Assembly: GCA_043808785.1 (NCBI GenBank)
Contig: JAZDEL010000009.1
Location: 150,001-182,000, forward strand
DNA length: 32,000 nucleotides
Reading direction: 5' to 3'
From: Candidatus Iainarchaeum sp.
GTDB taxonomy: Archaea; Iainarchaeota; Iainarchaeia; Iainarchaeales; JAZDEL01
A program made the position numbers and the translations under genes. The notes beneath the pieces were generated by a model, which worked only from the letters and a program-made list of their open reading frames with translations, was not told the DNA's origin and searched no databases. Below are positions 1,476-16,570 of the stretch, piece by piece (positions within the stretch are counted from its first letter, which is position 1; each line of letters starts with the position of its first letter).

Positions 1476-2159
1476 GTGCTGACTATCGTAGTGCCCTGCC
1501 ACAATGAGGAACAGAACCTGGAGGAATGCATCCGCAGGGTTCCGCAGATGCCGTGGGAAACCGAAATAATTGTGGTTGACGACGGCAGCACGGACCGAAC
1601 CGCGCATGTTTGCCGCGGGGTTGCGGGGGAAGAAAGGCGGAAAGGCAGGGCCGTGCGGCTTGTAAGTTACGGGAAAAGCCGCGGCAAGGGGTTTGCATTG
1701 AGGCGGGGTTTGGAAAGCGCGAATGGGGGGGTAGTTGCAATACTTGATGCCGACATGCAGAACCCGCCGGAGGAGCTGCCGCACATTGTGGAGCCCATAA
1801 TGAACGGAAGTGCGGATTTTGTCAACACAAACCGCTTTGCGGGGGGAGGGCACGGATTCAATTTTCATTCCGCAAGGAACAGGCTCCTCGCATTCTTCTT
1901 TGCGGGCATTACAGGCATAAATGTAAGGGACTGCCTGAGCGGAATGAAGATTTTCAGGGCGGAACCGCTGAAGGGGCGGCTTAAAGAGGACGGCTGGCCC
2001 GATTTTGAGCTGCTTGTGCTCGCAAAGAGGCGCGGGATGCGCATTGTCGAACTGCCTGTCGCCTACGAACCGCGCGAAAGCGGAAAGTCGAAGATGCTTA
2101 CCCTGCGCGGAAGCGCGGGGCTTTTCAGGGCTTTTGCAGCCTCGCTGCTGCGGCGTTAG
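1476..2159 (+). CDS. GT2 family glycosyltransferase, dolichyl/polyprenyl-phosphate sugar synthase (Dpm1)-like
   Basis: The N-terminus is LTIVVPCHNEEQNLEECI, followed by IIVVDDGSTDRT and the DxD-containing ILDADMQNPPEELPHIVEPIMNGSADFV. This is the canonical GT-A/GT2 layout. Confidence 0.9.
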   Translation: MLTIVVPCHNEEQNLEECIRRVPQMPWETEIIVVDDGSTDRTAHVCRGVAGEERRKGRAVRLVSYGKSRGKGFALRRGLESANGGVVAILDADMQNPPEELPHIVEPIMNGSADFVNTNRFAGGGHGFNFHSARNRLLAFFFAGITGINVRDCLSGMKIFRAEPLKGRLKEDGWPDFELLVLAKRRGMRIVELPVAYEPRESGKSKMLTLRGSAGLFRAFAASLLRR

Positions 2160-4120
2160 CCGCGTTTGCACTGCGCCGCGAATTCCGCGCCCGCGGAGCG
2201 CAAAATTGCGGCCTTTTTTTCAGGGAATTCGTAATACAGTTCGTCAAGCGCGCGGATTATCCCTGCGCAGCAGTCCGCACTGTGTGTGCTGCCGAATGCC
2301 GTGCACATTGCACTGAATTCCGCAGGCACGGGCCCGCGGCGGTAAATGCTTATGTATGCCGCCCCCGCCGTGCAGTCGCCGTAAAACTCGGCGGGAGTGC
2401 CGGTGCATGCGCCCGAAATTGCGCCAAGCTCAAAGTAGCATGCATTTCTGTAGCGCGGGGAAAGCATTGCGCAGGTTTCGGGGGACTGCGGGATGTATGC
2501 TGCAAGGGTTTCGGCACAGCAGTCCGCGCAAACTCCGTCAAGCACGCCGCACATTGCGTTTGCGGTTTCAATGTCGCGCCCGTAGGCCATTGCAATGCCC
2601 CACACAATTCCCGAGTGGCAGTGTTTCCTGTATTCCGCGGGAACGGCGGCGCACCTGCTGATGGCGCTCTCAAGGCGTTCGCTGCTGTTGCATTCCGTGC
2701 CTGCGCATCGCTTTGCGAATATCTCGCCATAGCCTATGCCCTGCCCCAGGCCCCAATAGCAGTGCGCCCTGTTCTGCGCGTCAAATTTCCCGCACTGTTC
2801 AAGCGCGGCGGGAATGTCCGCGCCGTGCATCCCGCCCGGCTTTTTGGCAAGCCAGCCATAACAGTAAGGCCTGTAAACAGAATCGCCGCCGAAATTGAGG
2901 TTGCCCGGCTTGATAAGTGCGAGGTTTGAGGCAAGGCCCGCAAGCAGCAGCAGGCAGATTGCGGCAAATGCCGCAGGCGCAGCCCAACGCGGCAGGCGCA
3001 CCACCCCCGCTTTCGCTGTGAGGAGTGAGAACGCCTGCGCGATAATTATGAACATAAAGGGCAGCAGCGGCACAAAATACCTGAATCCCTTGCCGCCGAA
3101 TTCGGGATTGACGGTGAAACTGCCGAGGAGGTAGCCTGCGGAATAAATAATGAAAAATGCAATAGGGAATGCGGGCAAAAGGCTTTTTATGCCGCCGCTA
3201 TGCCGTGCTTTGCCGAATAATGAAAACGCAACAAGCAGCAGGGAAAGCAAAAACACGGCATAGTAAATGCAATTAAGCATCCAACCGTCCAAAAACAAAA
3301 GAGCCCTGAAATTCAGGGATGCGGGAAGTTCAACAAGGATGTAATTGGCTGTTTTCGCTGGCAGGGCCGCAAGCCTTTCCCCCGCGCCCGAAACAAACAC
3401 GGCCCTTGCCTGAACAAACACCGAGGTGCCGTACGCAAGCGCATAGTAAATAGCGGGGCTGAATCCCGCAAGGAATGACGCCGAGAACACTGCAAAATTC
3501 CTGCGCAGGAAAAAGCCCCTGTCAATTGCAAGCCAAAAAATAATGCATGTTATTAGCATCCCCGCAGTCATGCCCCCGAACCACAACGAGAAGCCCGAGG
3601 CAATGCCGAATGCCGCGAAGTCGCGCGCGCGGCTTCTGCCCCCGTAAAAAATGCGGAAGAAGAGGAACATCATCAGGAGCGTCAAAAATGTGTCCTCAAA
3701 CGCGTGCTGGGAAATCAGGCCGCGCACTGTGAAGAGCGGCGGGGAGAGCAGGGCAAGCAGGGAGGCTGCGATTGCGGTTTTCTTGCCGAAATATCTCCTT
3801 GAAATCAGGCAGATAAGCGCAAATGTGCCGAGGGAGAATGTGAAGAGCATCATCAGCTTGAGAGTGAAGCCCGAAACCCCGAAAAGCGCAAAGAAGGGCG
3901 CAATCAGGAAGGGCAGGGAGAGCCCCGCGCCGTCGTAGGGCACCCACATGTAATCAAAGTAGGGCATTCTCAAGCCCCGCATAAGCTCAAGCGCAACCGT
4001 GCCGCGCACGCACTCCTCGTAGTCAAAAAGTTCAAGGGATGTTGAGGCAATAAGAAGCCTCAATATGAGGAATGCGAGGACCAGTGCAATGAAAATTTTG
4101 CGTTCGATAACCCGTTCCAT
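2156..4120 (-). CDS. Polytopic GT-C glycosyltransferase (PMT/ArnT-like, GT39/GT83-type) with a C-terminal cysteine-rich extracytoplasmic domain
   Basis: The N-terminal half carries an acidic first loop (FDYEEC) and about 10-12 hydrophobic helices, patterned like PMT_2/ArnT proteins. The last ~245 aa hold about 20 Cys in repeated (R/K)xxC(Y/H)xG(L/I)(G/V)xG blocks. The ATG at 4120 is preferred over the TTG at 4144 because the TATA at 4149-4160 sits about 30 nt upstream. Confidence 0.7.
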   Translation of the reverse strand: MERVIERKIFIALVLAFLILRLLIASTSLELFDYEECVRGTVALELMRGLRMPYFDYMWVPYDGAGLSLPFLIAPFFALFGVSGFTLKLMMLFTFSLGTFALICLISRRYFGKKTAIAASLLALLSPPLFTVRGLISQHAFEDTFLTLLMMFLFFRIFYGGRSRARDFAAFGIASGFSLWFGGMTAGMLITCIIFWLAIDRGFFLRRNFAVFSASFLAGFSPAIYYALAYGTSVFVQARAVFVSGAGERLAALPAKTANYILVELPASLNFRALLFLDGWMLNCIYYAVFLLSLLLVAFSLFGKARHSGGIKSLLPAFPIAFFIIYSAGYLLGSFTVNPEFGGKGFRYFVPLLPFMFIIIAQAFSLLTAKAGVVRLPRWAAPAAFAAICLLLLAGLASNLALIKPGNLNFGGDSVYRPYCYGWLAKKPGGMHGADIPAALEQCGKFDAQNRAHCYWGLGQGIGYGEIFAKRCAGTECNSSERLESAISRCAAVPAEYRKHCHSGIVWGIAMAYGRDIETANAMCGVLDGVCADCCAETLAAYIPQSPETCAMLSPRYRNACYFELGAISGACTGTPAEFYGDCTAGAAYISIYRRGPVPAEFSAMCTAFGSTHSADCCAGIIRALDELYYEFPEKKAAILRSAGAEFAAQCKRG

Positions 4121-4148
4121 AATCAAAACTAATTTAAAGTGCAAAGTA

Positions 4149-4167: not shown

Positions 4168-4443
4168 ATGGCTCCGGAAAAAGTGTACTTTAGGGGGAAG
4201 AACATCCTGCGCAGGACTGTCGGGGGGAAAGAAATGATAGTGGATATTGGCAAGCAGACATTTTACCAGCTGAACACGGCGGGGACATTTGTGTGGGGGC
4301 AGATAAACGGCAGCAGGTGCACGGGTGAAATCGCGGCAAAGGTTGCAAAAAGGTTTGGCCTGCCCGAGGGGCGGGCAAGGGAAGATGTCGAGTCTTTCCT
4401 GAAAAGTATTGAAAAGGAAAAACTCGTAAGGCTGAAAGATTAA
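4168..4443 (+). CDS. PqqD-family protein (RiPP recognition element, lasso B1-like)
   Basis: 91 aa. The sequence is ...GGKEMIVDIGKQTFYQLNTAGTFVWGQINGSRCTGEIAAKVAKRFGLPEGRAREDVESFLKSIEKEKLV. This matches the PqqD pattern: beta strands, then xLNxtgxxiW, then a winged-helix tail ending in a fl..L...gL-type motif. The start may be the GTG at 4183. Confidence 0.8.
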   Translation: MAPEKVYFRGKNILRRTVGGKEMIVDIGKQTFYQLNTAGTFVWGQINGSRCTGEIAAKVAKRFGLPEGRAREDVESFLKSIEKEKLVRLKD

Positions 4444-4445
4444 GC

Positions 4446-4934
4446 ATGCTACAGGAGATGCATATGCTTTTCAGGCTGAAGAAAAAGCACCTGCGCCAGG
4501 CATGGAAGATTGCTGCAAGCCCTTCGGATGCCCTTCTTTTCATAGGGATATTTTTCAGCATCATAATTATTTCAGCCCTGCTTAAATTTTCAAACAGGAA
4601 AAGGATTTTCGAGATTATAAAGCCGGGGCGGGTGTTCAGGCCCGCAAACACGGACGAATACTGCCTCAAGCTCCGCAGGTATGCAAACTTCCTTTTGTCA
4701 AGGCGCACGCCGTGCTTCAGGCTCACCTGCATGAAAAGGGCGATTGTTTACTACATTTTTCTGAACATGGCAGGCATAGAATCAAGGCTGTGTTTTGGCG
4801 TGAGAAAAAATGACTGGGGGGATAAAGGTGCGCTTATGCATGCATGGGCAAGCGTGGGCAGCAAGCCCTTTCCCCCGAAAAGCGATGATGCCTCTGTTTT
4901 CAGGCAGGTGTGCTCGTTTCCCCGCGCGCGCTAG
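4446..4934 (+). CDS. Lasso-peptide B2-like leader peptidase (transglutaminase-core, McjB C-terminal type)
   Basis: It starts 2 nt after the PqqD stop. It has an N-terminal hydrophobic helix, then CMKRAIVYYIFLNMAGIESRLCFGVRKN...GALMHAWASVGSKPF. This matches the C...(L)xxGIxxxLxxGV...HAWV signature carrying the catalytic Cys and His of B2 proteins. Confidence 0.75.
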   Translation: MLQEMHMLFRLKKKHLRQAWKIAASPSDALLFIGIFFSIIIISALLKFSNRKRIFEIIKPGRVFRPANTDEYCLKLRRYANFLLSRRTPCFRLTCMKRAIVYYIFLNMAGIESRLCFGVRKNDWGDKGALMHAWASVGSKPFPPKSDDASVFRQVCSFPRAR

Positions 4935-5083
4935 GAAACCAATACCTGGCACCCGGCACCAGATGAGGCCTTCATGCAGGTTAATTTGGATGCATTTTTG
5001 TCAGCAACAGTGCATAGCGCGGCTGAAATTCTCTCAAATACCTCTTTGGACTCAATCGCCGGCTTTTCATATTTCCTCTTCAT
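4931..5083 (-). CDS. Candidate RiPP precursor peptide (50 aa): MKRKYEKPAIESKEVFERISAALCTVADKNASKLTCMKASSGAGCQVLVS
   Basis: The ATG at 5083 lies 7 nt downstream of the radical SAM stop (5091-5093), on the same strand. The peptide has a basic N-terminus, a YEKPAI motif (lasso leader YxxPxL type), three Cys in the C-terminal half and a C-terminal Ser. The six-frame track shows it only as the inner part of a 66-aa ORF (4931-5131). Confidence 0.5.
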   Translation of the reverse strand: MKRKYEKPAIESKEVFERISAALCTVADKNASKLTCMKASSGAGCQVLVS

Positions 5084-5090
5084 CGCAATA

Positions 5091-6176
5091 TTATGCACTT
5101 TTCTCTTTATTATTCTTTTCGTTTGCTGCAAGAGCCCTCCTTACGGCAAGCCTGTGAATCCTTGCCTGCCTGCAGCTTTCGCGCAACGGCATGTCAATGC
5201 CTCCCCCCTCAATCATTCTCAGCCCGGGGCAGGTAATGCAGTATGATTTCAGCCTGCAGGATGTGCAGGCTTCAAGTATTTGGCTTCCCGTTTCCCTTAG
5301 CTGTTTAAATGCTTCGGAATTATGCCAGATTTCCTTAAGGCTCCTTTCCCTTATGTTGCCGCCCCATATCCTGCCCAGCTCTATGCATGGAGATACATCG
5401 CCATAGGGGGAGATGCGGCAGGTATTCCTCCCCGCATAACAGCCTATCAGGTAAATGGGCTCTTTGTTATTCTCGCGTTCGGCAATCCTGCGCAGGATTG
5501 GGGTTTTTGAGCCCTTAAACCTGTCTGCATGCCATTCCGCCAGCTCCCTGTCGGAGAGCCTGAATTTGCACGGCCCTAGGGAACCGTCGTTCTTGGGGGT
5601 AACAAGCGCGGTGTGTGAAAACGTAATCTTTTTTTTCCTGCAGTGCTCTTTCAGGGGGGCGAACTCCCCCGCGTTCTGCTTCATGAATGTGCTTTTTGCA
5701 ACAACCTTAACCCTGCGCTTTTTTAGCAGGCGCATTGCCTCGATGGTTCTTTCAAGGGAGCCGGGCGTGCGTGTAATGCCGTCGTGTATTTCAGGCTTCA
5801 GGGAGAAGAGGCTTATCTCAACAGAGAGCGGGCTGAGGGATGCGAGTTTATCTGCCGCTTCCTCATCAATCAGCGTGCCGTTTGTAAGTATGCGTATGCC
5901 GAAGCCGCGTTTCCTTGCATAGCACGCTATTTCAAAGAAGTCCGCGCGCGCCAGCACCTCGCCGCCCGTGAATGTCAGAAAAAGGCAGCCCAGCTTTTCA
6001 AGCTGCCTTATTGCGGATTTTGCCTCCGCAGTTGTCAGTTCCTTTTCATGCCTTTGCACATTGTAGCACATTACGCAGTCCTGGTTGCATTTGTTTGTCA
6101 GCTCAATAATTGCCGAAATCGGGATGCACGCCTTTTCGGAATATCTCATCAGTTCTATGTATCCCATTGCCCGCAC
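5091..6176 (-). CDS. Radical SAM enzyme with C-terminal SPASM domain (RiPP maturase-like)
   Basis: The CxxxCxxC motif is NKCNQDCVMCYN, followed by FTGGEVL (a GGE motif). The C-terminal Cys cluster is GCYAGRNTCRISPYGDVSPC...ACTSCRLKSYCITCPG...ESC, enough for two auxiliary Fe-S clusters. The start is the GTG at 6176 or the ATG at 6167. Confidence 0.9.
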   Translation of the reverse strand: MRAMGYIELMRYSEKACIPISAIIELTNKCNQDCVMCYNVQRHEKELTTAEAKSAIRQLEKLGCLFLTFTGGEVLARADFFEIACYARKRGFGIRILTNGTLIDEEAADKLASLSPLSVEISLFSLKPEIHDGITRTPGSLERTIEAMRLLKKRRVKVVAKSTFMKQNAGEFAPLKEHCRKKKITFSHTALVTPKNDGSLGPCKFRLSDRELAEWHADRFKGSKTPILRRIAERENNKEPIYLIGCYAGRNTCRISPYGDVSPCIELGRIWGGNIRERSLKEIWHNSEAFKQLRETGSQILEACTSCRLKSYCITCPGLRMIEGGGIDMPLRESCRQARIHRLAVRRALAANEKNNKEKSA

Positions 6177-6185
6177 CTTGCAAGC

Positions 6186-6461
6186 CTACTTTGATTTCAT
6201 TACAAGCAGGCCTTCTTTCTCCAATTCATGCAGGAATTTCCGCACATCCCTTTGCACGGTTGTTTTTGCAGCATCATACTCCGCAAAGATTTTTTCAGCT
6301 ATGCCGCGCTCGCTGTTCCTGCTGTTTATCTTTCCCCATATTCTGGTGCCCGAGGCATTTAGCGTATATGCGCGGTAATTGCCTGTTTTTATTATCATTG
6401 CCTTTTTGCCAATGGCTCTTGAGGCAGTATCATTAGCCCTGCACGGCACTGCCGCTTTCAC
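6186..6461 (-). CDS. Second PqqD-family protein (RiPP recognition element)
   Basis: 91 aa. The sequence is ...AMIIKTGNYRAYTLNASGTRIWGKINSRNSERGIAEKIFAEYDAAKTTVQRDVRKFLHELEKEGLL, the same PqqD pattern as 4168-4443. Its GTG start overlaps the kinase stop (GTGA at 6458-6461). Confidence 0.75.
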   Translation of the reverse strand: MKAAVPCRANDTASRAIGKKAMIIKTGNYRAYTLNASGTRIWGKINSRNSERGIAEKIFAEYDAAKTTVQRDVRKFLHELEKEGLLVMKSK

Positions 6462-7384
6462 AGAATCCCCCCGAGTTTTGCCCCCTTTTCAAGGCAAAGT
6501 TCGTAGCACCTGCTTTGCATTGCGATTTCGCTGCACAAATTAAAAACTGCAACTGTTTTCCCCCTGCTTTTGTTCATGTGTATCGCGCACCCCATTAGCA
6601 TATGCAAGGCCTCGGCTTTCGGCAGTTCCGATTTTGAATTCCCGCGGCCTTTCTTTAGGAATAGGACTGAATCCATTTTAATGCCTTTGTTACTGCCGCG
6701 GTTCCCTGCAAGTGCGCCCCTGCCCCCCCAGAAGGGCGTGCCGAAAACGCGCAGCGTTTTGTTGACTTTGCGTATTGCGCAAATTTCATCATTAAGCACA
6801 AGCAGGCTCCTGCGGTTTGCCATTGAAATTGTTGTTTTGCCTGCCCCGCTCCTCCCCGGGAAAAGGAAGGCGCGGTTTCCCTTTGCAAGTGCGGCAGCAT
6901 GCACAAGCATGCCGCCCCTCTCGGCAAGGAAAAAGGAGAAGCAGTTCCTGAGGAAGACATCCACATTGTCCTCCTGCCCCTTATGCACCCAGACCTTCCC
7001 CGCGCTATTTCCTGCATCAATCATGCCGCGAATAAACCCGCATTCAATGAAAAGCTTCTTCCCTTTTGCATTTGTGAATATTGTTGTGTTTTCCCTGCTT
7101 CCTATGCCGTTGGAAACGGCAACCTCGACGCAAAAATGCGGCTTTTGTTTTGAGCGGAAATCCCTGTACTGCTTGCCTATGTAAGAAATGATTTCCGGGC
7201 TGTCAGACATTATGCGTGTGCAGATTCCCGCAACTTCAACAAGGCGCGTTTCGCAGTTTTTCGGGGGCGAAAAATTCCTGAATTCAATCTCACGCTCAGC
7301 CATTGGGAACAGCGGCGGCGGCAGGAAATTTTTTTGCATTGCCATATGAAACACAACATCAAAAATACAACATCGAACCAACAT
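6458..7384 (-). CDS. HPr kinase/phosphorylase-related kinase (HprK-related, RiPP-associated type)
   Basis: MLVHAAALAKGNRAFLFPGRSGAGKTTISMA...LVLNDEICAI matches the HprK C-terminal domain pattern (hHAsav...G.a.ll.G.SGaGKST...l.sDe). It is the first gene of the minus-strand operon. Confidence 0.75.
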   Translation of the reverse strand: MLVRCCIFDVVFHMAMQKNFLPPPLFPMAEREIEFRNFSPPKNCETRLVEVAGICTRIMSDSPEIISYIGKQYRDFRSKQKPHFCVEVAVSNGIGSRENTTIFTNAKGKKLFIECGFIRGMIDAGNSAGKVWVHKGQEDNVDVFLRNCFSFFLAERGGMLVHAAALAKGNRAFLFPGRSGAGKTTISMANRRSLLVLNDEICAIRKVNKTLRVFGTPFWGGRGALAGNRGSNKGIKMDSVLFLKKGRGNSKSELPKAEALHMLMGCAIHMNKSRGKTVAVFNLCSEIAMQSRCYELCLEKGAKLGGIL

Positions 7385-7427: not shown

Positions 7428-7480
7428 CGGATTGCTAACTAATTACGAACTAATTGCGCTGTAATTGTGTCGGTAATTAT

Positions 7481-8341
7481 ATGGGGCTAAAACTGAGGAA
7501 ATCTTGGCTTGTACTGCCCGTGGCAGTGGCTGCGCTCGCGGTGATCATTGCGGCGGAACTCCTCTGGCTGAACCCCGATGCGGCGGAGGGGGACGGTTTA
7601 GCGGGGCCGCTTGGTTTGGATGCGGGAGGGCTTACTGCAAACGACCAGAACAAGGAAATTTGCGGGGAGGGATACTATTACACAATTGAGTTTGACTGCT
7701 GGCAGAAAAAGGACAATCGCTTCTGTTACGGGGTGAGGGAAAACCCCGCAGGTTACTGTGCCGGGCCGAGCAACTGCGGCGTGTCAGGCTGCTGCCCTAA
7801 CCCGAATGACTGCAGGATGGATGGGCGTTGCTATGTCTCCGGAAAAGTCTTTACCGGGGACATGTTAGGCATAATGTGTTATGAGGGAAAATTCGGCCTC
7901 TGCCGTGAGGATGACGTATGCGAAGAGGTAGGGGGTTATTACTGTACCGGGGATACGTGGGTGGAGGAAGAGCCTGCAAATTGCGAGGGCGGGATTTCAA
8001 TCAAGCCGCCGGAGCCCGAGGATAGCAATGCGGGTACTGAACCAAAAGGCGACTGCCCCGAAGGCGAATTTTACCGCGGCGAGTGGGACTGTTTCGAGCG
8101 GGGGGATGATGAAAAGTGCGGCTCCGCGGATGCGGGGCACGGATGCTGCGCTTCCGAGGGGCAGTGCTGGTTCGGGGGAAGGTGCTATGCGGGGGGGAAG
8201 CCGCTTTCTGAAAGTTCGGAGTGGATATGCACGGAAGGGATGTGGGATAAGTGCATTGCTGATGACAGGTGCGAAAAACAGGGCACGTACCTGTGCAATG
8301 GGCTGGTGTGGTCTGCCCTGGCGCCCGAGGGGTGTGAATGA
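7481..8341 (+). CDS. Secreted/anchored cysteine-rich protein with an internal tandem duplication
   Basis: The ATG at 7481 gives MGLKLRKSWLVLPVAVAALAVIIAAELL, a signal or anchor sequence. Two homologous ~100-aa modules follow, each with about 11-13 Cys: C(G/P)EGxxY...(F/W)DC(W/F)...CC...GRCY..GK...C.EG...C..DD.CE..G.Y.C.G..W...P..CE. Confidence 0.75.
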   Translation: MGLKLRKSWLVLPVAVAALAVIIAAELLWLNPDAAEGDGLAGPLGLDAGGLTANDQNKEICGEGYYYTIEFDCWQKKDNRFCYGVRENPAGYCAGPSNCGVSGCCPNPNDCRMDGRCYVSGKVFTGDMLGIMCYEGKFGLCREDDVCEEVGGYYCTGDTWVEEEPANCEGGISIKPPEPEDSNAGTEPKGDCPEGEFYRGEWDCFERGDDEKCGSADAGHGCCASEGQCWFGGRCYAGGKPLSESSEWICTEGMWDKCIADDRCEKQGTYLCNGLVWSALAPEGCE

Positions 8342-9033: not shown

Positions 9034-9059
9034 CGTATGCCATAATCTAATTGAAAAAT

Positions 9060-12000
9060 ATGGATAATAAGGGTTATCCGCGCACTGCGGGCAGAGGCGC
9101 GGGAAGGGGCTTTGCGGGAAAAAGCCGCGCAGGGGGCTTTGCGTTATTTTTGCTGGCAGTTGCAGTGCTCGCGCTTGCCTCTTATGCAGGCGCCTTCTGC
9201 ATAACCAATGCCGAGTGTGCGGCAATAAAATGCCCGCCAGCGGCGAACAAGGACACAACGCTCTGCAACAGCAAAACAGGGCAGTGCTACTGCGGGCCGA
9301 AAACCTGCGGGAACCTCGGCTGCGACAGGGGGGAAAACTTCATAAACTGCCCGTCGGAGTGCGCTGCAGGCTGCGGAAACCTCAGCTGCGAGCTCGGGGA
9401 AAACGGCAGGAACTGCCCCGCTGACTGCAGGGCTGTGTGCGGCAACAAGGTGTGCGAAACAGGGGAAACCGAATCAAGCTGCTTCTCGGACTGCGGGGGG
9501 AAACTGGACTGCTGTGAATATTCCACTGATGCGTATGCGGGCAAGGGGGCGTGCGTGTTATACTGCGCTGTGTGCGGCGACGGCTACTGCGACAGGCAGA
9601 GGGGCGAGGACAGGCTGACCTGCAGCAGGGATTGCGGAATGGCGGGCTGCGGCGACGGCATATGTGGAGCGGATGAGGACGCGCTGAACTGCCCTGCCGA
9701 CTGCCCGAAGGCGGAACTGGCGTGCGACGTGAACGCGCACTGCAATAAGCTTCCGAGCTGCAATTACGCGCCGCACGAGGAGAACATATATTACCTTGCT
9801 GAAAAGCCTGTCTTTAATGTGTGCAGCTGCATCACGGGAATGTGCGCAATAACCCTGCGCGCCCGCGATATTTGCGGCGACGGGTTCTGCAGCAGGGACG
9901 AGAGTTGCGACCCGACATTCGACAATTTCTGCAACCAGGACTGCGGAACATGCAGGCTTCCGGACCTTGCACTGGCGGGGCTGGAGGCCGACAAGGCTGT
10001 CGCTGAAAGCGGGGAAGGGGTTGCAATAACCGCCGCAGTAGAGAACCTCGGCTCAAAGGAGGCGGGCAAGTTTTCAATCTCGGTTTTCAGGGGAAGCGAG
10101 GGCGGGCAGATGCTTGAAACAGCGGAAATCCCCGGGCTGTTCCTTACCCCCGGAACAGGCGAAGAAAAGGTAGTAAGGTTCGGGAGCGAGGGGCAGCAGG
10201 GCGTGGCGCCGCTTGCAGTGGAGTTCGAATTCAGGGCTGAAGAGGGGAAGACTGTCGAGAGGTACGACCTTGATTTCGACGGGGATGGGACTTTCGACCT
10301 TTCGCTGAAGCCGCCTGTTTCAAAGGTTTCGCACACATACGGAAAGCCCGGCTTTTACAGGGCCACGACAACCGTAAGGTATGCCGACGGCAGCGGCGGG
10401 GAGAGCAGCGCGAACATAACCGCGCTTGAGCCGCAGCTGAGGCACACATTTAATCTTGACACAACAGGGATGTGTGGGGAGGTTCTGCTTGTCGTGAAGG
10501 CGGATGCGGAAGGGATTATTTCCGAGGCGAGCAGGGAGAACAACAGCAGGGCAATAGCGCTTAACATAAACTGCCCTGCGCTGCCCGTTGCTGTGTTCAC
10601 GGTTTCTCATGAGGGTAGGTTTGCGAAGTTTGACGCTTCCGCATCGCACAGCGATGAGGGCGATATCGTGCAATACAGGTGGGATTTTGGGGGCGGAAAA
10701 ACAATTGAAGCGGCGGATGCAATTGCGGAGCACACATATGAAACGGACGGCAATTTTTCAGTGAAGCTTGTTGTAGTGAATGCAGGCGGCAAGAAGGGCG
10801 CCGCTATCAAAAATGTTGTTGTCGGCACCCCCCCAAGCGCGAAAATAAGGCTCACTAATGGCAGCGGAATCGTGCCGCTGAAGATAGGGGCTGATGCCTC
10901 TGCGTCCTCCGACAGCGACGGGGAAATAGTTTCATACGCCTGGAAGTTCGGGGACTTGGAAAGCGCTGAGGGCATTCAGGCTGAGCACACATACCTCTCC
11001 CCCGGAGTTTACTCCCTGCTGCTCGAGGTTGTCGATGATGCGGGCCTGAGGGGAAGCGCTGTTTCGGAGGTTGTTGTTTTCGGCTCGCAGAAGGCGGACA
11101 TTGCCATAAAAATGCCGGCGCAGCCGGGCGATGTGGAACGGGAAAATGAAATTACTCTTGAGTTTTTGCTTTCAAACATCGACGGCGGGAATGCGGGGGC
11201 ATTTGATTTAGTGCTGAGGGAAGGGAAGCCCGACGGGAAAGAAGTCGCAAGGGAAAGCGTGCAGGGCATTAAATCAACGGAGTCCGTAACCGTAAAACTG
11301 AAAATAAAAACTCCCGAGGACCTCGGGCCCGTGGATTATTATGTTGTTGCCGACCCCGAAGACAGGGTAAGGGAATCGAACAAACGCGACAATGTGCTGC
11401 AGATTAGCCTGAATGTCATCCTGCCCGAGATTTGCGGCAACGATACGGATGATGATATCGACGGCTATGTGGATGAGGGCTGCGGGGTAAGCGTTGAGGT
11501 ATGCGCGAACAAAATCGACGATGATGGGGACGGGAAAATTGACGAGGGCTGCACGTGGACAGAGGCAATACTTGAGGGCGGGCATCTCATTGTTTCCGCA
11601 AAGGAGGAAGTGGTTACTGGGGAGCGGGCTGTTGTTGAGGTAAGCCACCCTCGGCTTGGGCCTGTTGAGGGTGCGGAACTTAAAATTATTTCACCGCAGG
11701 GGAAGGAAACGCGGCTGGCAACGGACAGCGAAGGGAAAGCCGTGCTTATGCTGAACGAGGTCGGGGAATACGCGCTTGTTGCGACAAAATACACGCTCAG
11801 GACAAGCCAGGGGCTGGCTGCGGTTTCGCAGGCAATGATTGCGGAAAGGCTTGCCAAAGTCCTGCCTGTTGCGCTGTTCGGGCAGGTTGCAATCGACCAG
11901 CCGCTGCTGATAATGCTGCTGCTTGCTTTGTGCGCGCTTGTTGCTGTGCTTGTTTTCGAGAGCGCGGAGCGGCTCTTCACAGAGGCGGAGTATGTGCCTG

Positions 12001-12221
12001 CCGAGGCACGGCAGAAGAGGGCGTTGAAATATGCCCTTGCGCTTGCGGTTGCAGCGGTGCCGCTGCTGATTAACAAGGTATACGGCTTTGAATTCGGCAC
12101 TGGAGTTGCCGCGGCAGGCCTGCTTGCAATGCTTTTCATCACATACAGCGCAAGAAAGGTCGACAGGCCCTGGGAAGCGGAGGGAGAACAAAGGCAGGAG
12201 GAAATGTTCCCGCCGGAATGA
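9060..12221 (+). CDS. Giant secreted, C-terminally membrane-anchored surface protein: Cys-rich CG(D/N)(G/L)xC repeats, CARDB-like and PKD domains, DxDxDG Cys motifs
   Basis: The signal-like segment is FALFLLAVAVLALASYAGA.
At least 6 modules of the type CGNLGCDRGENFINCPSEC, CGNLSCELGENGRNCPADC, CGNKVCETGETESSCFSDC, CGDGYCDRQRGEDRLTCSRDC, CGDGICGADEDALNCPADC and CGDGFCSRDESC follow.
There are CARDB-like segments (PDLALAGLEADKAVAESGEGVAITAAVENLGSKEAGKF and DIAIKMP...LSNIDGGNAGAF).
There are three PKD-like repeats (DLDFDGDGTFD...HTYGKPGFY, YRWDFGGGKT...HTYETDGNFSV and YAWKFGD...HTYLSPGVYSL).
A CGNDTDDDIDGYVDEGC / CANKIDDDGDGKIDEGC pair and 2-3 C-terminal TM helices complete the protein.
The ATG at 9060 is preferred to the TTG at 9051. 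Confidence 0.9.
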   Translation: MDNKGYPRTAGRGAGRGFAGKSRAGGFALFLLAVAVLALASYAGAFCITNAECAAIKCPPAANKDTTLCNSKTGQCYCGPKTCGNLGCDRGENFINCPSECAAGCGNLSCELGENGRNCPADCRAVCGNKVCETGETESSCFSDCGGKLDCCEYSTDAYAGKGACVLYCAVCGDGYCDRQRGEDRLTCSRDCGMAGCGDGICGADEDALNCPADCPKAELACDVNAHCNKLPSCNYAPHEENIYYLAEKPVFNVCSCITGMCAITLRARDICGDGFCSRDESCDPTFDNFCNQDCGTCRLPDLALAGLEADKAVAESGEGVAITAAVENLGSKEAGKFSISVFRGSEGGQMLETAEIPGLFLTPGTGEEKVVRFGSEGQQGVAPLAVEFEFRAEEGKTVERYDLDFDGDGTFDLSLKPPVSKVSHTYGKPGFYRATTTVRYADGSGGESSANITALEPQLRHTFNLDTTGMCGEVLLVVKADAEGIISEASRENNSRAIALNINCPALPVAVFTVSHEGRFAKFDASASHSDEGDIVQYRWDFGGGKTIEAADAIAEHTYETDGNFSVKLVVVNAGGKKGAAIKNVVVGTPPSAKIRLTNGSGIVPLKIGADASASSDSDGEIVSYAWKFGDLESAEGIQAEHTYLSPGVYSLLLEVVDDAGLRGSAVSEVVVFGSQKADIAIKMPAQPGDVERENEITLEFLLSNIDGGNAGAFDLVLREGKPDGKEVARESVQGIKSTESVTVKLKIKTPEDLGPVDYYVVADPEDRVRESNKRDNVLQISLNVILPEICGNDTDDDIDGYVDEGCGVSVEVCANKIDDDGDGKIDEGCTWTEAILEGGHLIVSAKEEVVTGERAVVEVSHPRLGPVEGAELKIISPQGKETRLATDSEGKAVLMLNEVGEYALVATKYTLRTSQGLAAVSQAMIAERLAKVLPVALFGQVAIDQPLLIMLLLALCALVAVLVFESAERLFTEAEYVPAEARQKRALKYALALAVAAVPLLINKVYGFEFGTGVAAAGLLAMLFITYSARKVDRPWEAEGEQRQEEMFPPE

Positions 12222-14753: not shown

Positions 14754-15578
14754 CTAATAGCCCTGCACGCTCATAACCCTGAAGAGCCTGCGGAAAAGGT
14801 AAACCGCCGCAAGAGGCGCGACAACCGCAAAGAAGAGCAGGTACATCAGCGGCTCGAAAGGCACAATGCCGTGGAGCCATATCGACCTGATTACATTAAC
14901 GCCCTGATATATGGGGTTGAAGTACGCTATCGTGGGGAGGATGCCGCCTATCGCGCCGAACTGCGGCACGCGCAGCACCTCAAGAGGGTAATAGAAGCAC
15001 GAGAAAAACACGACAACAATCCGCATATAGCCGAAGAGCGGGACAAAGTTCTCGTTGAACAGGCCTGCACAGCCGACAATGAGCCCTATGCTCAGCGAAA
15101 CAGTGAAAAGGAGCAGGAGCGCAAAGAGCACAAGCGCGAGATTGACGAAAGAAATCGGCATCAGGAAAAAGCAAAGCGCAAGGAACATCAGCGTCGAAGG
15201 GAAGAGGGAAATAGCCTCCGCAAGCCCCACACCGAAGATGAGCGAGAGCCTGTTTATGGGCGCGAGCAGGGTTGCATCAACGGTCTGCCAGTATTTCTCC
15301 GCGGTGAACTTCTGCAGGAACGTGGACCATCCGCTGAAAAAGAACACGTCCGCAAGCATGCCGAGCACAAGGAAAACAACGAAGTTCTGCGAGGTTACCT
15401 CGTTGCCTATTGCGGCAGTGCCCTGCCCCAGAAGAAAGAAGCCCCAGTAAACCAGGAGGAACGGCATTATGCGCATCAGCGGGGAAATCATGCTGTCCGC
15501 GAAGAATGCGAACTTGAAACGCATGGCAAGCGTTGTTTCCTTCTCGCCTATGGCAAGCGACTCGTCTATTATGCTCAT
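14754..15578 (-). CDS. ABC-2 type transporter permease
   Basis: 274 aa with six hydrophobic helices. Its ATG overlaps the stop of the upstream ATPase gene (ATGA at 15575-15578). The C-terminal pattern is similar to the partial permease at 2-613. Confidence 0.85.
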   Translation of the reverse strand: MSIIDESLAIGEKETTLAMRFKFAFFADSMISPLMRIMPFLLVYWGFFLLGQGTAAIGNEVTSQNFVVFLVLGMLADVFFFSGWSTFLQKFTAEKYWQTVDATLLAPINRLSLIFGVGLAEAISLFPSTLMFLALCFFLMPISFVNLALVLFALLLLFTVSLSIGLIVGCAGLFNENFVPLFGYMRIVVVFFSCFYYPLEVLRVPQFGAIGGILPTIAYFNPIYQGVNVIRSIWLHGIVPFEPLMYLLFFAVVAPLAAVYLFRRLFRVMSVQGY

Positions 15579-16570
15579 ACAACAGACCTCGCGGCGGTGA
15601 GCCTGACAAACACGTCTATAAGGCTGGGCTGCTCCTCGCGTATTGTCGTTATCTTATAGCAGGAGAGGAATGAAAGAAGGTCGGGCAGGAATTTCTTGTC
15701 CTCGAGAAGGACGCGCACCCCGACCTCGGAAAGTTCAACCGAGTGTATGTAGTCCTGCTTCCTGAGCTGACCGAGCACGGATTCGTCGACATAGCTCAGC
15801 CCGATATCAACAGCAACATTCTTTGCAATAACCTTCTTCAGGTTTGCGGGCGTGTCCTCCATCACAAGCCTGCCCCTGTTCATTATGCCTATCCTGTCGC
15901 AGAGGTCGTTCGCCTCGTCCATGTAGTGCGTCGTTATGACAACCGTTTTTTCCATTTCCTTTATTAACTGCCTTATCTGCAGGGATATTTTCGGGTCAAG
16001 GCCGAGCGTGGGCTCGTCAAGGAACAAAATATCGGGGTCGTGCAGCAGTGCGCGCGCAAGCGCAAGCTTTGATTTCATTCCCGAGGAGTAATGCTCCACA
16101 TATGAATCAAGCCACTGCCCGAGGCCTAAGAAGTCTGTAAGTTCGCGTATGCGCTCATCAAGGTTTTTCACCTTGTAGAGCTTGCCGAAAAACCTGAGGT
16201 TGTCCCTGCCCGTCATCCTGTGGTAAATCATCGAGAAGCCGAACATGACGCCTATGCGCTGCCAGGCTTCCTGCGGGGGCCTGCCCTCTATAACAACCCT
16301 GCCTTCGGTCGGCGTAATCAGGCCGACAAGCATCTTTGTTGTTGTTGTCTTTCCCGCGCCGTTGGGGCCGAGGAGGCCGTAAATCTCGCCCTCCTTTATC
16401 CTGAGCGAAACATCATCAACCGCACGGAACATCTGGTGCTGCGGGAAAAGGAAATCCACGAACATATTTCCCGTGTGCTGCGCCTTCGAATAGGTTTTCA
16501 CAAGGTTGTCGGCTTCGATTACGTAATCGCGCTTCTTTACCCCTGCTTCTACCTCGAGGCCGAATGGCAT
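15575..16570 (-). CDS. ABC transporter ATP-binding protein (ABC-2/DrrA-like) with a C-terminal accessory domain
   Basis: Walker A is GLLGPNGAGKTTTTKML, the signature is YSSGMKSKLALARAL, Walker B is ILFLDEPTLGLD and the H-loop is ITTHYMDEA. Confidence 0.95.
   Translation of the reverse strand: MPFGLEVEAGVKKRDYVIEADNLVKTYSKAQHTGNMFVDFLFPQHQMFRAVDDVSLRIKEGEIYGLLGPNGAGKTTTTKMLVGLITPTEGRVVIEGRPPQEAWQRIGVMFGFSMIYHRMTGRDNLRFFGKLYKVKNLDERIRELTDFLGLGQWLDSYVEHYSSGMKSKLALARALLHDPDILFLDEPTLGLDPKISLQIRQLIKEMEKTVVITTHYMDEANDLCDRIGIMNRGRLVMEDTPANLKKVIAKNVAVDIGLSYVDESVLGQLRKQDYIHSVELSEVGVRVLLEDKKFLPDLLSFLSCYKITTIREEQPSLIDVFVRLTAARSVV

Follow-up and report, generated by a model that had tools for sequence, protein, structure and literature searches.

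A predicted radical SAM-modified RiPP precursor with a lasso-type leader, B1/B2 pair and kinase in a Diapherotrites archaeon

Introduction

What is the role of a 50-codon open reading frame (ORF) that lies on the minus strand, at positions 4931-5083, directly behind a radical S-adenosylmethionine (rSAM) gene of a Diapherotrites (DPANN) archaeon? The ORF belongs to a 32,000-nucleotide stretch of contig JAZDEL010000009.1 (positions 150,001 to 182,000; assembly GCA_043808785.1, Candidatus Iainarchaeum sp.), hereafter the window, to which all coordinates refer unless another locus is named. An initial annotation had proposed that it encodes the precursor of a ribosomally synthesized peptide that undergoes post-translational modification (RiPP), with a leader in the style of lasso peptides and a cysteine-bearing core, adjacent to rSAM and PqqD genes, and this proposal is supported by the homologous small ORFs that we found beside rSAM and PqqD homologues. 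Very probably, the ORF is the precursor (A) peptide gene of an rSAM-dependent RiPP cluster that has no lasso cyclase. From sequence comparison, the product appears to be an rSAM-modified RiPP that would draw on the leader, the B1/B2 proteins and the kinase of the lasso toolkit.

The precursor gene and its closest relatives

The coordinates and translation of the ORF given in the initial annotation were reproduced, including its start (ATG at 5083-5081) 7 nucleotides past the stop codon of the rSAM gene (TAA at 5093-5091). With the predicted leader cleavage discussed below, the gene is divided as follows:

4931..5083, minus strand: precursor peptide gene, 50 amino acids, ATG to TAG, exact translation MKRKYEKPAIESKEVFERISAALCTVADKNASKLTCMKASSGAGCQVLVS
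5021-5083, minus strand: leader, residues 1-21
4934-5020, minus strand: core, residues 22-50
4931-4933, minus strand: stop codon

The translation contains the previously noted leader motif Y5-x-x-P8-x-I10, and a recount agreed with the placement of Cys at core positions 3, 15 and 24 when the cut is after A21. As also stated earlier, the 50-codon ORF appears in the mechanical ORF list only within a 66-amino-acid TTG ORF (4931-5131), which has a 41-nucleotide overlap with the rSAM gene. The description of the ORF as unannotated is wrong for GenBank, where an identical 50-amino-acid protein from a contig of 182,652 bp is entered as 'hypothetical protein V1676_06415 [Candidatus Diapherotrites archaeon]'; the entry has no functional annotation, and the peptide matched no family in Pfam or NCBIfam.

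Two loci retrieved from Logan carry close relatives of this gene:

L001, Logan SRR27458548: peptide P0002, MKAKYEKPAIESKEVFERISAVICNLPSRNSGRTTCAKQPEFLYCGGGNYS
L004, Logan SRR22387960, positions 9196-9345: peptide of an uncalled ORF, MKAKYEKPAIESKESFERISASLCLTTRTSSRPTCQKVSGTNCPAAKLS

At both loci, the peptide ORF follows the rSAM gene and faces a gene for a lasso-type B2 leader peptidase, with rSAM proteins 59-61% identical to that of the window (L001 and L004) and a B2 protein 52% identical (L001); L004 is moreover syntenic with the window, having the flanking PKD/CARDB and small-protein genes in common. The three leaders are of the same length and share 19-20 of their 21 residues, and the start position of the ORF is conserved in these close relatives. 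Across leader codons 1-21, synonymous differences far outnumber non-synonymous ones in each of the three pairwise comparisons (8/1, 12/2 and 9/1), and amino acid identity in the sense frame exceeds that in each of the five other frames. From residue 22 on, by contrast, nothing is kept but the three Cys residues, a motif of the form T-C-x-K and the Ser at the C-terminus, such that the window and L001 peptides are identical at 20 of 21 leader positions but at only 6 of 29 core positions. Conserved leader codons followed by a variable core mark an ORF as a translated RiPP precursor, and, judged by these codon comparisons, the 50-codon ORF is a real, translated gene with strong purifying selection on the leader and a hypervariable core.

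It is vanishingly unlikely that the ORF arose by chance and is an untranslated part of the region between the rSAM and B2 genes. Its shortness, the lack of an obvious Shine-Dalgarno sequence upstream, and an exact-sequence look-up in the contig collection that gave no called gene would fit such an origin, but the strong excess of synonymous differences, the retained start position, family hidden Markov model (HMM) E-values down to 3e-19 (see below), and the finding that no alternative reading frame stays open throughout the family all argue for a gene. We also considered, and rejected, a plus-strand ORF of 90 amino acids (4974-5246), antisense to the leader, as the real gene: it overlaps the 3' end of the rSAM gene, and its conservation falls short of that of the sense frame. 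It only looks conserved among the window, L001 and L004 because its third codon positions and those of the sense frame fall together, and no antisense frame is open family-wide. The stop codons of the precursor and B2 genes overlap convergently in a shared palindromic CTAG (4931-4934), an arrangement repeated in L001 (1377-1380), whereas in L004 the two genes are separated by 89 nucleotides.

A widespread family of precursors

Searches that started from the peptide recovered little. A word-index search returned the window peptide itself and a single homologue, and when 1.84 billion representatives were searched exhaustively with HMMER and a profile of two peptides, only those two were recovered. 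Exact look-ups of the window rSAM protein and of the peptide matched no contig in the contig collection, and a metagenome scan with the peptide produced no match. Because the peptides are too short to reach significance, the family was reached through the rSAM gene, for which 338 homologues were found at E <= 1e-30, about 35-44% identical and spread over many bacterial phyla. Altogether, 86 loci were examined, 80 of them from a metagenome scan with the rSAM alignment. A motif scan for small ORFs supplied the matches for an HMM, which was then applied to 5,499 ORFs and identified a same-strand small ORF adjoining the rSAM gene in about 67 of the 86 loci (E-values from 1e-8 to 3e-19; 1.8e-11 for the window precursor); the loci that had no match were mostly short contigs. 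Thus, the homologous small ORFs next to homologous rSAM and PqqD genes expected from the initial annotation do occur, with the [YW]xxPx[ILV] motif and the position of the first Cys conserved.

The 65 distinct peptides, encoded beside genes for rSAM homologues of 34-44% identity, share the leader motif K-K-x-[YW]-x-x-P-x-[IVL], with basic residues ahead of [YW], and an E-T-x-A junction with the consensus F-E-T-[TL]-A-L-A-C-G-K. The distance from the Tyr to the first Cys is 18 residues in 49 peptides, 19 in 10 and 20 in 6. An Ala is located three residues before the first Cys in 46 of the 65, and A21 of the window peptide aligns with it. The peptides contain two to four Cys (33 of the 65 have only two), and the first of these is invariant in position. 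Finally, the C-terminal residue is Ser in 47 peptides and Thr in 11 (together 89%), compared with 10% Ser and 5% Thr among the 5,433 ORFs of these loci that served as controls (binomial p of 8e-33 for Ser).

The hosts include Acidobacteriota, Planctomycetota, Omnitrophota, bacteria of the candidate phyla radiation and DPANN archaea, among others. For ten diverse members, neither Pfam nor NCBIfam (release 20) gave a family match, PMC12710340 contains nothing on the family, and we found no description of these precursors in the open-access literature, a scope that leaves out subscription journals, where an earlier description is possible. By profile and motif conservation, the precursors belong to a large, widespread family encoded beside a cassette of an ScmC-like kinase, a PqqD protein and an rSAM/SPASM enzyme.

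At one locus (L017, 1252-1974), a single rSAM gene is followed by three tandem precursor genes with differing cores. A genome scan with the pattern MK[RA]KYEKP yielded two further loci, L002 and L003, of which L003 was rejected as it looks like a chance match. L002, from a metagenome-assembled genome of Faecousia sp. (4185-6734), might be a distant Firmicutes member, with an rSAM gene on the minus strand (4185-5294), an ScmC-like protein (5535-6380) and, from 6501, a peptide MKRKYEKPMLLKEEF...NNLFSS with a Ser-Ser end, which is overlapped by an ORF of 2941 amino acids in another frame.

The gene cassette and the lasso cyclase

Around the precursor, the window encodes the following proteins:

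5091..6176, minus strand: rSAM/SPASM maturase, 361 amino acids from a GTG start (358 in the NCBI model), PF04055 at 93.6 bits, SPASM domain PF13186 at 50.2 bits
6186..6461, minus strand: PqqD-family RiPP recognition element (RRE), in an operon with the kinase and rSAM genes, PF05402 at 54.8 bits, lasso_PqqD_Bac at 42 bits (cutoff 80)
6458..7384, minus strand: ScmC-family P-loop kinase of predicted HprK/PEPCK fold, 308 amino acids (281 in the NCBI model, 6458-7303)
4168..4443, plus strand: second PqqD-family protein, lasso B1-like, directly upstream of B2, PF05402 at 51.6 bits
4446..4934, plus strand: lasso-type B2 leader peptidase, a transglutaminase-like Cys protease convergent with the precursor, NF033537 (lasso_biosyn_B2) at 45.2 bits (cutoff 33), PF13471 at 43 bits

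The convergent B1/B2 pair (4168-4934), the HprK-like kinase (6458-7384) and the conserved C-terminal Ser/Thr had all escaped the initial annotation. The constant part of the cassette consists of the HprK/PEPCK-fold kinase of the ScmC family, the PqqD protein and the rSAM/SPASM enzyme, which occur together in almost all loci whose flanks are long enough; the PqqD gene lies between the kinase and rSAM genes in nearly all of them. In L004, L005 and L007, the order is ScmC (PF27840), PqqD, rSAM/SPASM and the small ORF, often followed by an S24/S26-like peptidase and a nucleotidyltransferase of the NTP_transf_5 family. The second, B1-like PqqD protein is present in the window and in L004; that of the window scores 35.8 bits against lasso_PqqD_Bac and 33.8 bits against lasso_PqqD_Strm, both below the cutoffs.

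The component that would define a lasso cluster was not detected: a scan of 20 window ORFs, comprising the large ORFs and those of the cluster, gave no match to an asparagine-synthetase-like lasso cyclase, and none was found in L004 (13 kb), L005 or L007. Because the cluster contains no such cyclase, no macrolactam would be expected, the rSAM enzyme taking the place of the cyclase. The initial annotation had arrived at the same conclusion by a different route, namely that no Asp or Glu occupies core positions 7-9, which was a miscount, given that D28 (codon 5000-5002) is core position 7 when A22 is counted as 1. The conclusion holds on the grounds that no cyclase was found in the window or L004 and that Asp7 is absent from L001 and L004, where positions 7-9 are S-R-N and R-T-S, respectively.

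The Asp nevertheless bears on a different interpretation, in which the ORF encodes a genuine lasso precursor that, once B1/B2 have removed its leader, is closed into a 7-residue macrolactam between Ala1 and Asp7 by a cyclase whose gene lies elsewhere in the genome, and the rSAM enzyme is only a tailoring enzyme. A small residue at position 1 and an Asp at position 7 would, taken alone, permit such a ring, the leader has canonical lasso spacing, B1 and B2 are present, and the combination of a kinase with a C-terminal Ser is that of the paeninodin-type lasso peptides (PMC9266682). We consider this interpretation very unlikely, given the lack of an asparagine-synthetase-like protein among the scanned window ORFs and in L004, the lack of conservation of Asp7, and the fact that the constant partner across the 65 family members is the rSAM enzyme, not a cyclase.

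Leader recognition and cleavage

In the reading that we prefer, an rSAM-dependent cluster with no cyclase, the [YW]xxPx[ILV] leader motif would be bound, with good confidence, by the PqqD-type recognition proteins. The identity of the protease that removes the leader appears to differ between loci. Next to the precursor, most loci encode a signal peptidase I of the SipW/archaeal type (TIGR02228 at 63 bits in L027, cutoff 51.85; Peptidase_S24 matches elsewhere), and cleavage by such an enzyme would suit the junction, which has a small residue at position -1 and either Thr or Ala at position -3. Lasso B2 scores above the NCBIfam cutoff only in the window, L001, L004 and the subgroup of L050 and L054; L046 has a B2-like C-terminal fragment.

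The canonical lasso leader ruler has Tyr at -17, Pro at -14, Ile or Leu at -12 and Ser or Thr at -2 relative to the cut (PMC10368454). With a cut after A21, the window leader conforms to this ruler (Y5 at -17, P8 at -14, I10 at -12, Ser20 at -2). Across the family, the canonical ruler is found in exactly the B2-bearing loci, with Ser at -2 in the window, L001 and L004 and, in the L054 peptide (MDKKTDKERKRKNYSKPELTKHKPLREVTM before the cut, GEYNAVICSTVVQQTPETCP after it), Thr at -2 and Gly at +1. In the majority of precursors, those with a Tyr-to-Cys distance of 18, the Tyr would fall at -16. The correlation between the presence of B2 and the lasso ruler is suggestive, not proven, because a distance of 19-20 is seen in some of the signal-peptidase loci as well.

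The site itself, after A21, had been predicted in the initial annotation from the leader spacing alone, and two features now agree with this prediction: it coincides with the boundary between the conserved and variable parts of the three closest peptides and with the Ala that precedes the first Cys by three residues in 46 of the 65 family members. We rather favor, at somewhat better than even confidence, removal of the window leader after A21 by the lasso-type B1/B2 proteins, which would leave a 29-residue core that begins two residues ahead of the first Cys. Use of B1/B2 in a cyclase-free pathway is plausible given that such pairs cut leaders in vitro when no cyclase is present (PMC10368454).

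The loci L054 (2458-6028), L050 and L046 form a second, bacterial subgroup with the gene order PqqD, lasso B2, rSAM, a 50-amino-acid TTG ORF, HprK-like kinase and NTP_transf_5. Leaders of the L054 subgroup are of the textbook lasso kind (Y-17, P-14, L-12, T-2, Gly+1), and the peptide ends in Pro, not Ser, the kinase notwithstanding.

Chemistry of the radical SAM enzyme

In the family alignment of the rSAM enzymes, the CX3CX2C motif and seven further Cys are invariant, and the SPASM domain is complete. The family profile matched, among proteins of solved structure, SkfB (2e-30), PqqE (1e-21) and CteB (1e-20), followed by anSME and SuiB. Scores against the curated sactipeptide and ranthipeptide maturase models are far below the cutoffs (StsB 99.8 bits with a cutoff of 625, AlbA 73.3 with 850, SkfB 65.1 with 300). 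Given that two of the top three solved relatives form thioethers and that the first Cys of the precursors is invariant, thioether crosslinking is the best guess. Crosslinking of the core by the enzyme would then occur at the Cys residues, the likeliest links being thioethers of the sactipeptide or ranthipeptide kind, an assignment in which our confidence falls slightly short of even.

The precursor could also be real while the enzyme does something other than forming thioethers at Cys, such as a C-C or C-N crosslink, epimerization, or chemistry on the C-terminal Ser/Thr, in which case the Cys residues would serve in disulfides or metal binding. The last option would follow the example of MftC, which acts on the C-terminal Tyr of MftA; MftC (133 bits over residues 18-332) and PqqE give the best full-length NCBIfam alignments. 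PqqE is also the second-best solved relative, the C-terminal Ser/Thr is, after the first Cys, the best-conserved feature of the core, and 33 of the 65 members have just two Cys. Nevertheless, this scenario is unlikely: the first Cys is invariant and its spacing from the leader motif is fixed, the thioether formers SkfB and CteB rank first and third among the solved relatives, and the conserved Ser is already explained by the dedicated kinase.

The kinase and the C-terminal serine

The 308-amino-acid kinase has 86 homologues, all unnamed and all but two with a PF27840 match. The protein itself (6458-7384) gives weak matches to HprK_rel_A, HprK_rel_B, ScmC and PEPCK, and among 51 homologues, HprK_rel_A was matched in 36 and ScmC in 42, all below the cutoffs. 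In an alignment of these 51 sequences, H135, G150, G155, K156, T158 and D172 are invariant, and S152, G153, A154, T157 and E173 nearly so, resulting in the motif H...GxSGAGKTT...DE. The kinase of lasso precursors BsfK has H148-G163-G166-G168-K169-S170-D186-D187, and the spacing of 15 between the His and the first Gly is the same in both (PMC10368454). An AlphaFold2 model (predicted local distance difference test score, pLDDT, of 91.3) had PEPCK (E-value 6e-9) and HprK/P (1e-5) as its top Foldseek matches in the PDB. The modeled fold thus appears to be that of PEPCK/HprK, and the likeness to the lasso kinases is one of motif and spacing, as published for BsfK.

A homologue of HPr kinase acts in the paeninodin-type lasso clusters, where it phosphorylates a strictly conserved C-terminal Ser of the precursor before an NTP_transf_5-like protein places a hexose on the phosphate (PMC9266682). 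NTP_transf_5 genes are present in L004 and many other loci of the family. From the recurrence of the kinase, the conserved C-terminal Ser/Thr and NTP_transf_5, as in the paeninodin-type clusters, we infer that the HprK-like kinase would phosphorylate the conserved Ser50 in a similar manner, a step to which we assign an even chance.

Comparison with known systems

The closest parallel is with phosphorylated lasso peptides that have a split B1/B2 (paeninodin, pseudomycoidin and the Bradymonas bsf cluster; PMC9266682, PMC10368454). The leader ruler with a small hydroxyl residue at -2, the discrete PqqD-type B1 and transglutaminase-like B2, the HPr-kinase-like motif H...GxxGxGK(S/T)...D(D/E) and a highly conserved C-terminal Ser are common to both, and the NTP_transf_5 nucleotidyltransferase is likewise encoded in many of the sister loci identified here. 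Unlike those systems, the present loci contain no cyclase, there is no conserved Asp or Glu among core positions 7-9, the core has two to four conserved Cys, the constant partner is an rSAM/SPASM enzyme with its own PqqD protein, and most members have a SipW-like signal peptidase instead of B2. The leader of paeninodin (MKKQYSKPSLEV...) is strikingly similar to MKRKYEKPAIES. By analogy, the locus is probably lasso-like in leader recognition and leader removal and, again probably, in C-terminal phosphorylation.

Sactipeptide and ranthipeptide systems (SkfB, AlbA, CteB, PapB) share the rSAM/SPASM enzyme with an RRE, the Cys-bearing core and the precursor gene beside the maturase gene; in the present family, however, a discrete PqqD protein takes the place of an N-terminally fused RRE, the leader belongs to the lasso type, a kinase and a conserved C-terminal Ser/Thr are present, and curated maturase models score far below the cutoffs. 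The SynChlorMet (SCM) cassette ScmC/ScmD/ScmE/ScmF (NCBIfam TIGR04248-04251) includes the same kinds of proteins, namely a P-loop protein of the ScmC family (PF27840), a relative of PqqD and an rSAM/SPASM enzyme resembling PqqE. It differs in that the proteins described here score well below its models (ScmC 24.9 bits with a cutoff of 125, ScmD 22.2 with 100, ScmE 111.5 with 400), that there is one rSAM gene instead of two, and that a precursor can be identified. To our knowledge, the SCM precursor is listed as unidentified in the TIGRFAM text. At two loci (L025 and L027, for example L027 1292-6588), a single precursor is surrounded by genes for two rSAM/SPASM proteins, two PqqD proteins and two signal peptidases of the SipW type; such two-rSAM loci (L027) were considered as the SCM cassette proper and rejected because of scores far below the cutoffs.

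Mycofactocin (MftA/B/C) and pyrroloquinoline quinone (PQQ; PqqA/D/E) biosynthesis also combine a small peptide with a PqqD-type chaperone and an rSAM/SPASM enzyme, and MftA has a conserved C-terminal residue as well. These parallels might suggest that the peptide is converted into a redox cofactor of either type and not into a secreted natural product. Such an origin is extremely unlikely: the core is Cys-rich and hypervariable even among close relatives (6 of 29 residues against 20 of 21 in the leader, window and L001), several different precursors occur in tandem at some loci (L017), the cassette includes a leader peptidase and a kinase, no cofactor-dependent dehydrogenases accompany it in L004, L005 and L007, and the scores are far below the cutoffs for MftC (133 bits, cutoff 265) and PqqE (101 bits, cutoff 381).

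Several observations weigh against the pathway proposed here. At position -2 of the window leader, Ser stands where lasso B2 enzymes normally require Thr, the acidic pair of the kinase is D-E in place of the D-D of lasso kinases, and in the L054 subgroup a kinase is accompanied by a peptide that has no C-terminal Ser. NTP_transf_5 is absent from the window, and no transporter adjoins the cluster, the nearest ABC (ATP-binding cassette) pair being about 8 kb away. Finally, there is no curated maturase family whose cutoff the rSAM enzyme reaches, and the best full-length alignments mentioned above are with C-C bond formers. We raise only tentatively, at well under even confidence, the possibility that the loci represent a widespread RiPP class for which we found no published description. 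Here, the lasso set of leader, RRE, kinase and nucleotidyltransferase would be joined to an rSAM/SPASM cyclase that replaces the ATP-dependent cyclase; the C-terminal Ser/Thr would be a handle for a phosphate (or a phospho-sugar or nucleotide); and the leader peptidase would be interchangeable (SipW-type or lasso B1/B2), with the leader apparently retuned by one residue to the B1/B2 ruler.

Genomic neighborhood

Beyond the cassette, the window contains several genes close to the precursor locus:

2156-4144, minus strand: polytopic membrane protein of 662 amino acids with a Cys-rich C-terminal domain, beside B1, no Pfam or NCBIfam family matched
7454-8341, plus strand: Cys-rich, secreted-looking protein of 295 amino acids with an internal duplication, no family matched
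9051-12221, plus strand: PKD/CARDB surface protein of 1056 amino acids, next after the 295-amino-acid protein
14754-16570, minus strand: pair of an ABC-2 permease and an ATPase, about 8 kb from the cluster

The flanks of L004 encode counterparts of the 295-amino-acid and PKD/CARDB proteins, of similar size and in the same order, of which only the PKD/CARDB protein is confirmed by domain matches. Between the B2 and B1-like PqqD genes of L004 (9958-11644) lie genes for an arginase-family protein and NTP_transf_5; B1 of the window abuts B2, and neither gene was found there. In L005 and L027, an ABC pair similar to that of the window adjoins the cassette.

Implications

RRE-Finder detected about 300 discrete lasso-type RREs that co-occur with rSAM enzymes and were treated as false positives (PMC7470986), and the loci of the precursor family described here are probably among them. 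The predicted use of the lasso leader, B1/B2 and kinase toolkit in the absence of a lasso cyclase would be a case of module swapping among RiPPs, which bears on the evolution of RiPP classes and on how these 'false positives' are to be understood. For the large family of ScmC-kinase/PqqD/rSAM cassettes, represented in the databases only by hypothetical proteins, a candidate substrate peptide can now be identified, and the enzymology becomes directly testable on a single peptide and three or four enzymes. For the organism, the locus points to a multi-enzyme RiPP cluster in an archaeon with a small genome from the DPANN, a group for which natural-product genes are rarely discussed.

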